This document shows, piece by piece, positions 28,279-39,775 of a DNA stretch of 64,000 nt (position 1 is its first letter; every line of letters starts with the position of its first letter). Under the pieces are notes generated by a model that was not told where the DNA came from, ran no database searches, and saw nothing but the letters and a program-made list of their open reading frames with translations. This DNA comes from Pocillopora damicornis (Eukaryota), in the NCBI RefSeq assembly GCF_003704095.1, contig NW_020844271.1, positions 1 through 64,000 of the forward strand, in the 5' to 3' direction. Both the position numbers and the translations under genes were made by a program.

Positions 28279-31200
28279 CTAATCTGGTAAATCATATCGA
28301 AGTTTTTTCATTACTTCAGAGCAAATTTCCTCAATTCTCACGATGTTTTCAGCACTCAGTTCTTGTTCCCAGGCCGTGACCATTCTGGAGCTGATCAATT
28401 CCCTCGAGGAACCCAAACCAAATTGCTCAGTCCGAACGACTGTAAGTAGACGATGTTCAGTAGCTGGCGAAAGCGGCACACCTACAAAGCGAGAAAGTTC
28501 CTCTGCGGTTTTGCGAGGTTTTAGGACCAAATCCTCTAATTGAACAAAGCGTATGCCTCCCATTTGAAAGTGCGCGTTGGCACGCAGAATCGCTTGCGTC
28601 TGCGCGGCCCAGAGATGGGCAAGAAATTGCACGAGGGTGTTTTTGTCGTTTTTATCGCTATGATCCTTGAGTGCTTGCTGCATTTCAAAGAATTCAGGGG
28701 AAAAATTTGACATACTCCTCTCTGAGCACTTGAGATTCTTAACTGTATCAAAGGCGGCGTGGACAGCAGCGCGAAGTTCAGTATCCACGCGAATTTCTCG
28801 AAGCCACGCGTTCACCCACCCTCTCGGATCCCTAACCACGACTATGGCACGCATTCTCTCCTCCACGATCTTTGATAACCACGAAAACTTCAAACCCCAC
28901 GCGGGATCCGACAGTCGGACAACTGGAAGAGCCTTGTGAAGTTTATGGGGTAATTTTGGTAAAACTCGTTTCGGGTCTTTAGCAAGACCACGAAACCATT
29001 TTCGATCCCGAAGCGTTTCAGACGAATGGTGAAAACGATGAAAAGTAGAACACGGATCCAAAAACTTTGCACCTCTCCCAACCTCTACATTGAAGAAATT
29101 CGAAGAGTTTTTAAACATGTGTGTTAGTATTTCCGCGCCTGCTAGAGGTAGAGATGTGAATAACACAAACGGTGGAACCTCTTGTACTTCGGAGAGAACA
29201 CGAATTTCGCGGGAACTTTCAGTCACTTTGGGTTTTTTTAAGTCACATCCTTCACCAACACAAAAACTGATGTGAACAGCCATTATTGTTATTAACCATG
29301 ACATCCCAAGACAAATCACGAACATATCACAGAGAGTTTGTCGAAACATCTTTTTTCGAAGCTGTAAATAGAGATATAGCAACACAATAGAAACAATGAA
29401 TGGCAGAAACAAGGAGGATAAAATATTCCAAGTTGTATGCGAGTTAGTCTCACTTAGGGTTAATATTAAAACTTCCTCCTCTGCAGATGACATGACATCC
29501 AAACCGAAACGCACAGTCCTGGATCTCTTCTCGCTAATTTCAACCTTGCAATATCCTCCAAATTCCAAGAACTCATATCTAGAGTAAGGTTGATTATGCT
29601 TTGTTGCTATGGAAACATGGTAACGAACTCCATTCACCATCACTGAGATCTTCACTCCGTGTTCATGCCCAGTTACTACTCGTGGAAGTTGGTCTACTCT
29701 ATGTCCAGGACCGAGAAATAAGTACGCAGTCCGTGTATATCGCACGTTCAAGGGCGTTGTTATATTAAGATAATGTGTTCGAAAGGAATGGAAACTTGAC
29801 GAGTAATTTGTCGAATTGGCATAACTCTTCTGGTCGGTCCCTAAGTTTGACCAGTAAACTCTGTGCAAAAGTCCCTCTATGGAAATGGTAGCATGGGGTG
29901 TTTTGGACATGCTCTCATTGAGTATGAAGGGATGATCAACGTTATGAAAGAAGGCGCTCATAACAGATGCTTGACTTCCTATTTTGCGTTCGATATGATC
30001 GACCACGAGGAGCACGCTTGGATTCAACATAATCAAGGAACGATATACACTAAGAAGGCCCAGTTCTTGTCGATACCACCCACTCATCTCTCCGCTTATA
30101 AAAACCATATCATCTTCGCTTGACGCAGATATAATATCTCCTTGGGCCCTCCAGGCTGCCATTGTTTGAAAATTAATCCACTTACTGCATTCTCCTATCT
30201 GCCCCTCAAAGGGTTTGTAGCAAGATGACTGTTGAGAGGGACCGAATACTAGAGCATTATTAAGGAAAGTGTACTTGTAGGCGTAATAGGTCTCTGTAAT
30301 GAAAGGTACACCATTTGGGGCAAACACAAATGATCCTTGGTCCGGCTGTTCATGGCCAGGGTTAAAACTTCTCCGTCCTTGTAGCCATGATCGAACGCGT
30401 TTTCCTCTGGCAAGAGAATTTATCGCTCGTCCGTGGAGCACCCCACATTTCAAGGAAAGAAATGTTCTTTTCTTACCCCAGTGACCGCCTAAATTATTAC
30501 CGGGAGATAGGTCCAATCCACCCCCGTAAGTTACCACTCCCCAATCACTGAACACGTGGAGTCGAGGCATACTTGGGTTGGGTAGTGCTCTCTCTTGAAT
30601 ATCAGGATTATAGAATAAGAACTCTGTGTGGAGCATGCTTTTTTGGTGTGACGCCGATTGACTATAGACTTTCACTCCTGCTATTTGAACCTTGTGCTCT
30701 CTTATCTGTCTGGCCAGCCAATTCCCTAAGCCACTTCTCAAAACATGGTTGTCTAGGAAAACTAGCTGGCTTTCTGGACCGTAAAACCAGTTCCGATTGG
30801 AATCGCCATAGCCAACGGTTTCTCTGAACCCTGGGAGCACCATATGGTAAAGAAACGCCGCGTGCTCTTTAAGCCAAGGGGAATGCGTGAAGTCTACACG
30901 TAAGTGGCGTAACGCAAGGAACACATACTGCGTTAGTGAACGTGTAGTGTAAGTGCCGTAGGCGACTCCTTCGTTAATGGAGCCGTCCACTACGAAGTTA
31001 AACAGCTCTAAGTTTCTACTTAACATTAAGTGAGCTCGTGACAACCATTTCTCCCCCTCGAACATCTTGTGTCGGGCGACAATCAAGGCGCCATTTAATA
31101 TCGCCATATAGTTTGTGGCTACGTGATTTTGAAGATAAGAAGACCCCCACCAAAGCTTGAAAGATCTTTCGTATAATTCCTTTGTCACTGCCGTTATATT

Positions 31201-31692
31201 TCTTAAGAACCGAGTTCTTTGAGTGTCGTTTAAACGTGAGTACAGAAAGTCAAATGCGGTCGCCATGCCGGTTAAAGAGTGGGCTACGGGGACATCGTCA
31301 CGGAATGAATCGGCGACGCGCCAGTTGGGAAGATTGGAAAGTCGCTCCATAAACAGAATTGCAAGCTCTGTCGCCTTGAGATCCTCTGGATTGAGAACGC
31401 AATAGAAAGCTAACGCAGTCAGGTCATTGCCATAACACTCGTTCCAAGCACTAGAGAAGCTTTCCCAATCTTTAGGCGGTAAATAATATTCAGGCCTTTT
31501 TTTTATCTCTTGACTGGCCAAGTAGATCCTTTGAGATATTTCAGAGTGAGTAGTTCGCGCGCGTTCGTGGAGACTAGGTATATCTTTCTCGTTGAAAAAC
31601 AAGAATGGATGAAGCTGTTCCAAGCCATTCGCGGAAGCTTCGCAAGAAACAATAGCGACAACTGTTAGAACAATTCTTGATAAGAACGACAT
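28279..31692 (-). CDS. DSEL: Dermatan sulfate epimerase-like protein (epimerase + 2 TM + sulfotransferase-like domain), copy A, 1137 aa, intronless
   Basis: Signal peptide; [60 protein letters not shown]; two TM helices; [11 protein letters not shown] and VRDPRGW sulfotransferase motifs. This is the DSEL architecture. Confidence 0.93.
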
Positions 31693-39300: not shown

Positions 39301-39775
39301 TTTGAGTGTCGTTTAAACGTGAGTACAGAAAGTCATATGCGGTCGCCATGCCGGTTAAAGAGTGGGCTACGGGGACATCGTCATGGAATGATTCGGCGAC
39401 GCGCCAGTTGGGAAGATTGGAAAGTCGCTCCATAAACAGAATTGCAAGCTCTGTCGCCTTGAGATCCTCTGGATTGAGAACGCAATAGAAAGCTAACGCA
39501 GTCAGGTCATTGCCATAACGCTCGTTCCAAGCACTAGAGAAGTTTTTCCAATCTTCAGGTGGTAAATAATATTCAGGCCATATTTTTATCTCTTGACTGG
39601 CCAAGTAGATCCTTTGAGATATTTCAGAGTGAGTAGTTCGCGCGCGTTCTTGGAGACTAGGGATATCTTTCTCGTTGAAAAACAAGAATGGATGAAGCTG
39701 TTCTAAATCATTCCAGGAAGTTTGGGATGAAACAATAGCAATGATTGCAAAAGCAATTATTGATGAGAACGACAT
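36359..39775 (-). CDS. DSEL: Dermatan sulfate epimerase-like protein, copy B, 1138 aa from the first ATG, intronless
   Basis: Same motifs as copy A. The ATG at 39775 ([17 protein letters not shown]) aligns with copy A's start; the ORF-track start at 39916 is a GTG. Confidence 0.93.

Follow-up and report, generated by a model that had tools for sequence, protein, structure and literature searches.

A probable gene-conversion mosaic in two tandem DSEL-like genes of Pocillopora damicornis, one of which may be kept different on its predicted epimerase cleft rim

The window analysed here comprises 64,000 nucleotides (nt) of the coral Pocillopora damicornis (contig NW_020844271.1, positions 1 to 64,000) and contains two long open reading frames (ORFs), both continuous and intact on the minus strand, which encode the DSEL-like proteins A and B. 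The pair is very probably an old tandem duplication with gene conversion. We put at about 0.6 the probability of this conversion mosaic combined with selection keeping B different on the rim of its predicted epimerase cleft, which would make B retuned and not redundant. A preliminary description, made from the sequence alone, had placed two DSEL paralogs within 28279..39775, and both ORFs lie there:

28279..31692, minus strand: DSEL-like copy A, 1137 amino acids (aa), single coding exon; nearer to the Stylophora gene
36359..39775, minus strand: DSEL-like copy B, 1138 aa, single coding exon; bears the unusual cleft-face changes

DUF4962 and Sulfotransfer_1 (PF00685) exceed the Pfam cut-offs in both copies, and copy A matches the human DS-epi1 structure 6HZN with an E-value of 1.7e-168. 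A structure model of B residues 26-735 (predicted local distance difference test score, pLDDT, 88.6) superimposes on 6HZN with a template modelling (TM) score of 0.92 and a root-mean-square deviation of 2.5 Å, indicating the epimerase fold of an α-toroid and a β-supersandwich. Hydrophobic stretches begin near residues 754 and 787 and are followed by the C-terminal sulfotransferase domain, i.e. a DSEL-type layout. Human W98, D147, H205, Y261, H450, H452, E470, Y473 and N481 (PMC8006597) correspond to coral W83, D132, H190, Y245, H447, Q449, E467, Y470 and N478, and all nine catalytic, substrate and metal positions are the same in A and B. Two manganese ligands, E467 and N478, are retained, while the third (human His452) is Gln449 in both copies. 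A is predicted to be a conventional chondroitin C5-epimerase of the Golgi, converting glucuronic acid (GlcA) to iduronic acid (IdoA). Among named relatives the DSEL-like protein of Stylophora pistillata is the closest (84% identity to A, 82% to B), and in the tree the A and B pair is sister to the Stylophora gene.

Several side observations concern the same proteins. The Gln449 codon of B lies at 38429-38431, and glutamine occupies the His452 position in 12 of 120 homologues, including DSEL proteins of Acropora, Montipora, Polyodon and Acipenser; this scatter over corals and sturgeon or paddlefish suggests a repeated change of the metal ligand. The branch to Stylophora and the A/B pair is long. 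Neither A, B nor Stylophora has the N-glycosylation sequon at N127 that is found in 25 of 42 homologues. At position 440, where 110 of 120 homologues have tryptophan, A and B have arginine.

Over an alignment of 3462 nt the two copies are 93.3% identical. Homology extends 10 nt past the stop codons and, at the other end, about 35 nt upstream of the starts; none was found farther upstream in the window alignment, which allows different regulation of A and B. The proteins differ at 123 of 1137 residues (89% identical) and at 54 of the 710 positions of the epimerase domain, and in the genes 80 changes are silent, 136 replace an amino acid, and there is one in-frame indel of 3 nt. The segment that was duplicated extended from directly beyond the stop codon of DSEL into the second intron of a thioredoxin/PDI-family gene, and thus the 3' flank of B is a remnant of that intron. 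The features concerned are:

34256..34507, plus strand: degenerate remains of exon 1, intron 1 and exon 2 from the adjacent TMX3-like gene of the thioredoxin family; divergence 20%, with a 7-nt deletion in the exon
35869..36348, plus strand: decayed copy of the next intron, 23% diverged; stops at the duplication junction about 10 nt past the stop codon of B
46129..48800, plus strand: 5' part of the intact thioredoxin/PDI-family gene, with the CGYC exon at 47716-47829; head to head with B and source of the remnant

Compared with 46148-47091, the remnant has a divergence of 0.199 over 236 columns (6 gaps) and 0.230 over 469 columns (20 gaps). The decay of a co-duplicated remnant, claimed in the preliminary description, is therefore borne out, while its attribution to TMX3 is presumptive: the sequence supports a thioredoxin/PDI-family gene, which we take to be TMX3. 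The coding pair contains one in-frame indel in 3.4 kb and no stops, as against 26 gaps in 705 columns of the remnant, and B is therefore under purifying selection.

The silent differences form a mosaic. The proportion of silent differences (pS) is 0.105 overall and that of replacement differences (pN) 0.051, with a flank divergence of 0.20-0.23 in the remnant. Tracts have pS of 0.02-0.05 and islands of 0.18-0.33; the islands are thus at the level of the remnant and the tracts far lower. With segment boundaries drawn by eye, pS by codon segment is 0.33 (1-25), 0.04 (26-240), 0.18 (241-303), 0.08 (304-388), 0.25 (389-445), 0.09 (446-480), 0.18 (481-525), 0.05 (526-780), 0.02 (781-856), 0.22 (857-928), 0.05 (929-1050) and 0.23 (1051-1137). 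The near-identical tract noticed earlier at 37465-37900 (against 29380-29820) has 8 differences in 436 nt, 5 of them silent. Uniform silent divergence at flank level would have spoken against conversion and is not seen. All the named motif pairs (among them NECYGND/NERYGND, EGVAYG/EGVYYG and KWINFQ/KWFYFK) are present, and so are the reported differences at both termini, which are explicable as ends of the homologous block. The main segments in B, besides those around the catalytic tyrosine treated below, are:

37436..38200, minus strand: largest homogenised tract, codons 526-780 (A 29353-30117), pS 0.053; codons 650-780 have pS 0.021
38450..38494, minus strand: island at codons 428-442, directly before the H447/Q449 loop (human H450/H452)
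38249..38269, minus strand: island at codons 503-509, around the flexible loop of human residues 507-515; two single-depth contigs in 4 of 4 DNA runs
36989..37207, minus strand: island in the sulfotransferase domain (A codons 857-928; pS 0.22, pN 0.15), with most changes derived in B
36359..36622, minus strand: C-terminal island, A codons 1051-1137, pS 0.23

Purely silent changes (63 of 1014 codons) are clustered by three permutation statistics (p 0.008, 0.038 and 0.003). When changes in A, B and Stylophora were polarised against 27 scleractinian proteins, 20 derived sites were shared by A and B, 8 by A and Stylophora and 2 by B and Stylophora. Islands delimited purely from silent changes cover 284 positions and contain just 1 of the 20 sites shared by A and B (p 0.025). 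The 853 tract columns favour ((A,B),Stylophora), with alternatives at p ≤0.002 in the approximately unbiased (AU) test. The 284 island columns fit ((A,Stylophora),B) best and give ((A,B),Stylophora) an AU p of 0.02; as islands were picked by A/B divergence, this test carries some bias. The disagreement of the two trees upholds the earlier proposal of an old duplication homogenised by conversion. These sequence patterns are read most simply as a duplication that took place near or before the split from Stylophora and was succeeded by conversion; the tandem duplication is likely about as old as that split, and roughly three quarters of the coding sequence have likely been made uniform by gene conversion. 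One Stylophora locus was found, in a search that cannot prove absence of a second. Sequence searches of the Pocillopora genome itself returned A and B only, and a third copy or pseudogene as donor was rejected on this ground.

The arrangement is further supported by contigs from four DNA runs (four studies, one of which could share its source with the window), compared with window 36000-40000. The junction between the remnant and the C-terminus of B is bridged by one contig in 4 of 4 runs, with 0-3 other letters. Across 38153-38408 all four runs have two contigs of single-copy depth, one with 0-2 other letters and one with 16, and 16 is also the number of places at which A and B of the window differ there. 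In 4 of 4 runs codons 456-541, and likewise the C-terminus, are represented by two separate contigs of single depth. Thirteen long collapsed contigs have depths of 1.24-2.09 times single-copy, in rough agreement with the 1.36-1.68 predicted from the window differences, and 32 of 36 other letters inside the ORF, among those listed, are A-type. Run contigs omit variants and cannot phase A and B. The duplication and at least two islands are thus common to the samples, and a haplotype or misassembly artefact was rejected on the strength of the bridged junction and the two single-depth contigs. The loose ends of contigs at 38263 and 38547, with a likeness of 80%, probably match by chance.

The changes that set B apart most clearly lie around the predicted groove:

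39041..39052, minus strand: micro-island at codons 242-245, with A244Y adjoining the catalytic Y245 (human Y261); 6 nt differences in 12 nt
39536..39544, minus strand: B-only sequon N78-F-S, five residues ahead of W83 (human W98)
38867..38875, minus strand: B-only sequon N301-W-S, made by F303S
38744..38752, minus strand: B-only sequon N342-Y-S, in a low-confidence loop

Tyr244 occurs in none of 120 homologues (alanine in 105), nor does Ser303 (phenylalanine in 108). The peak at codons 242-245 follows shortly after a 95-nt identical tract; so narrow a peak is the pattern expected at a site shielded from conversion, the alternative being a single multi-base event. The related lyase 6JPH has histidine at the position equivalent to 244, and a ring there therefore fits the fold. 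A role of the residue preceding the catalytic tyrosine in PL17 and PL39 lyases found no confirmation in search listings.

We then considered a cleft-facing set of positions, consisting of the loops leading into six presumed inner toroid helices, four of which begin at W83, D132, H190 and Y245, and of the two loops with H447/Q449 and E467/Y470/N478. Of the 309 toroid positions 115 belong to this set, and they hold 14 of 24 differences (p 0.03; 28 background pairs, 0.15-0.49). Over the whole epimerase domain the set holds 22 of 54 differences in 162 of 710 positions, an about twofold enrichment with a circular-shift p of 0.028 that keeps the clustering. In contrast, 17 other pairs have 205 of 1065 differences there, a slight depletion (0.19 against 0.23 of sites). 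Inside and outside the set pS is equal (0.091 and 0.090), whereas pN is 0.064 inside and 0.025 outside. The sequons at N78, N301 and N342 all belong to the set and are absent from A, and in 121 homologues no sequon lies at 78, 301 or 342 or at a position next to them. Three cleft-set sequon changes compare with 0.09 expected, 19 other pairs having 2 in 1160 differences. N-glycans are required for the activity of human DS-epi1 according to PMC8006597. A further test on loops 426-451, 464-479 and 498-511 (p 2e-5) was discarded as circular, the loops having been derived from the islands.

Between A and B dN/dS, the ratio of replacement to silent divergence (dS), is 0.47 (epimerase domain 0.36). 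Comparisons of A and B with two distant coral loci, and of these with each other, give 0.15-0.19 (epimerase domain 0.12-0.13), dS of the distant loci being near saturation. Constraint has been relaxed, or there has partly been positive selection, since the duplication. Only codons 781-856 give a dN/dS above 1, with a single silent change behind the value. L005, a third such locus, was left out of these ratios for its broken frame; on this metagenome contig (L005:279-3700) DSEL is split by an in-frame break into open frames of 333 and 807 codons.

A number of results weigh against this reading of a converted pair with selection on the cleft face of B. dN/dS in six islands is 0.25-0.64 and nowhere exceeds 1. 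Differences are not significantly close in sequence to the nine key residues at 1-3 residues (p 0.16-0.47), and at 5 residues the outcome is mixed (p 0.16 uniform, 0.015 variability-weighted); the earlier statement that islands lie near functional motifs thus applies to cleft-facing segments as a class and fails for close proximity to the key residues. In the epimerase domain 9 of 54 A/B differences, compared with 13 of 58 Stylophora-specific changes, sit at columns conserved in at least 90% of homologues, i.e. no enrichment. Of the patches singled out in the preliminary description, 86, 428-442 and 503-509 are mostly variable across homologues, and at 86, 131, 284, 414 and 506-509 the derived state is in A, not B. 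The toroid enrichment is not significant against Stylophora-specific changes (14 of 24 versus 9 of 25, p 0.16), and 9 of 21 difference clusters touch the cleft set. That set was built from model secondary structure and human residue positions instead of three-dimensional distances, and it was drawn after the differences had been seen, so its enrichment is moderate evidence only; the sequon pattern too was noticed after the fact, and N-W-S sequons are poorly used. On the island columns the Kishino-Hasegawa (KH) test does not reject ((A,B),Stylophora) (p 0.11). Six RNA runs contain 0.25-0.29 of the words of 30000-39900, a figure that is not copy-specific and does not separate expression of B. 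Mutation of His452 inactivates human DS-epi1 (PMC8006597), and the epimerase activity of both A and B is uncertain because this residue is glutamine in the two copies.

The chief rival is an explanation by conversion and relaxed constraint, which we regard as a serious possibility, though well short of an even chance. Here islands at block ends and in variable loops drifted too far to convert, and the residues of B are tolerated or mildly harmful in a spare copy kept for dosage or expression pattern. The flank-level pS of the islands, the co-variation of pS and pN (rho 0.39-0.64) and the tracking of background variability by A/B differences (rho 0.31) agree with it, as do an A-B dN/dS that is raised in tracts too and the loss of homology upstream of the starts. 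However, drift predicts no excess of replacement over silent changes on the cleft face and would rarely place three new sequons there, and background pairs are slightly depleted in the cleft set, not enriched. We judge selection on the cleft face of B somewhat more probable than its absence. Of the preliminary claim that selection keeps substrate-contact patches different, the part resting on cleft-face enrichment and sequons stands with moderate support, and the patches variable across homologues or derived in A weaken it.

It is improbable, in our view, that B is a catalytically silenced epimerase kept as partner or scaffold for A or for a faster-evolving sulfotransferase-like domain. Tyr244 and three glycans could block the groove, the strongest B-derived patch lies in the sulfotransferase domain (11 sites between A and B at 881-920, 3 between A and Stylophora), and homo- and heteromers of human DS-epi1 are reported in PMC8006597. 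Yet the nine catalytic, substrate and metal positions are unchanged, though conversion could keep them passively, and in PMC3717172 a sulfotransferase function of the human DS-epi2 domain is a suggestion. More improbable still is that the islands are polymorphic cassettes shuffled between loci, which would yield enzyme and glycan diversity among colonies instead of two fixed enzymes. The protein cluster to which the copies belong has 233 members, 14 of which were used besides A and B of the window, with one 191-aa fragment dropped. B-type states among the 14 are Tyr244 in 8 of 14, Ser303 in 6 of 14, the 428-442 patch in 5 of 14, N78 in 8 of 13 and N342 in 4 of 14; islands assort nearly freely with A- or B-type ends, and third states occur at 240-241 and 304. 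Such assortment, with half-and-half states, is expected from assembly collapse of near-identical copies, which the four DNA runs show directly, and these members come mostly from contigs below 25 kb. The assortment is thus evidence only that both states are widespread, not of fixation or shuffling, and mosaic proteins in public assemblies were set aside as proof of shuffling, being probable chimeras.

Two DSEL copies in a coral are not unusual, as the gene has been duplicated independently in Oculina and in at least two further coral lineages with same-contig pairs. The two-enzyme system with distinct iduronate-containing glycans that the preliminary description envisaged is at this stage hypothetical. 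The duplicates are:

Other anthozoan DSEL duplicates: the Oculina pair; same-contig sets P0184/P0186, P0187/P0185, P0024/P0194/P0199 and P0196/P0195

In these duplicates the toroid cleft face takes a slightly larger share of the differences (59 of 132 versus 156 of 409 in other pairs). None of the other anthozoan duplicates has Tyr244 or Ser303; P0196 has a cleft-set sequon at 299. Specific to the present pair are the conversion mosaic and the cleft-face remodelling of B. Many anthozoan relatives (P0039-P0068) are about 770-820 aa long with no sulfotransferase domain listed, and some of these are paired, with both members on equally long contigs (P0053/P0054, P0063/P0067).

The coral copies resemble human DS-epi1 (DSE, 6HZN) and DS-epi2 (DSEL) in fold, in the equivalents of W98, D147, H205, Y261, H450, E470, Y473 and N481, in the DSEL-type layout and in the single coding exon; a whole ORF in one exon is a stated DSEL feature (PMC3717172). 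They differ by the glutamine at His452, and B adds Tyr244 and three cleft-face sequons absent from the homologues examined. The vertebrate genes DSE and DSEL lie on different chromosomes, with 51% identity in the epimerase domain, while the coral pair is tandem, 89% identical and likely converting. Bacterial lyases of families PL15, PL21, PL33 and PL39 have the same fold and catalytic Tyr/His apparatus, but they cleave instead of epimerising, and identity is 10-17%. In PL33 lyases the shape of loops over the groove sets substrate range and processivity (PMC11848413), and by analogy these loops could serve as a model for how rim changes retune B.

Homogenised tracts, islands of divergence and trees that change with the segment are described in tandem paralogues for primate red/green opsins and RHCE/RHD (PMC3924837) and, as a further case of conversion and divergence, for copepod GOT1p1/p2 (PMC3728101). 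PMC3924837 describes divergence peaks under conversion in the opsins. In the coral it is the coding block that is converted and the non-coding flanks that have diverged, whereas the opsins show the opposite. Unlike in the opsin, RHCE and GOT1 systems, the coral target sites are spread over several loops, and a functional difference between the copies is a prediction. The evolutionary pattern itself is thus already known from opsin-like cases; new are the enzyme family and the gained cleft-face sequons.

In the mechanism we propose for a retuned B, conversion would act inside the coding block only, because the flanks are presumably too diverged to pair. Tracts overwriting the cleft-face changes of B would be selected against, so that islands remain. 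A would work as the conventional enzyme, while in B the bulky ring beside the catalytic tyrosine and up to three extra N-glycans may narrow or cap the groove. Such a groove could lower processivity or shift the accepted chain, e.g. in its sulfation. A measurably different glycan product of B is conceivable, though we would not yet expect it.

Among the neighbours, a RING E3 ligase-like gene, presumably of ZNRF1/2 type, lies downstream of A at about 25000-25850 on the minus strand. The same neighbour follows DSEL in the coral locus L005 (L005:6452-7299), and A therefore holds the ancestral 3' position. DSEL is head to head with a TMX3-like gene (the name is our assumption) in the window, and human DSEL and TMX3 are both on chromosome 18, which suggests that the linkage has been retained from cnidarians to vertebrates. 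Between B and this neighbour, window 41200-45700 holds mobile-element-like fragments, partly repeated and partly masked, with what look like one integrase-like and one reverse-transcriptase-end-like ORF. An intronless rhodopsin-family G protein-coupled receptor of 310 aa lies at 8588-9520 on the minus strand.

Cnidarian DS-epi2 genes are in print: for six cnidarian species PMC8006597 records DS-epi2 only. Hydra makes chondroitin sulfate and heparan sulfate (PMC5050403). Searches that covered few subscription journals found no report of dermatan sulfate in Cnidaria, nothing on Pocillopora with dermatan and epimerase, and, when widened, no DSEL terms among the papers listed. According to a 2013 review, dermatan sulfate first appears in molluscs and echinoderms (PMC3717172). 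The residues for specificity and processivity of DS-epi1 were inferred from docking because no substrate co-crystal was obtained. Two natural copies with the same catalytic positions, whose 54 differences in 710 positions gather on the cleft face, lend themselves directly to swap experiments. If new glycans do tune the groove of B, this would be an unusual route to enzyme specificity. It is an attractive but doubtful idea that B is a glycosaminoglycan epimerase retuned by new N-glycans and an aromatic residue on the groove rim and held by selection against conversion, in a coral lineage with two enzymes writing different iduronate patterns. The repeated duplication of DSEL in corals may point to a role in matrix, mucus or skeleton that is sensitive to dosage or diversity.

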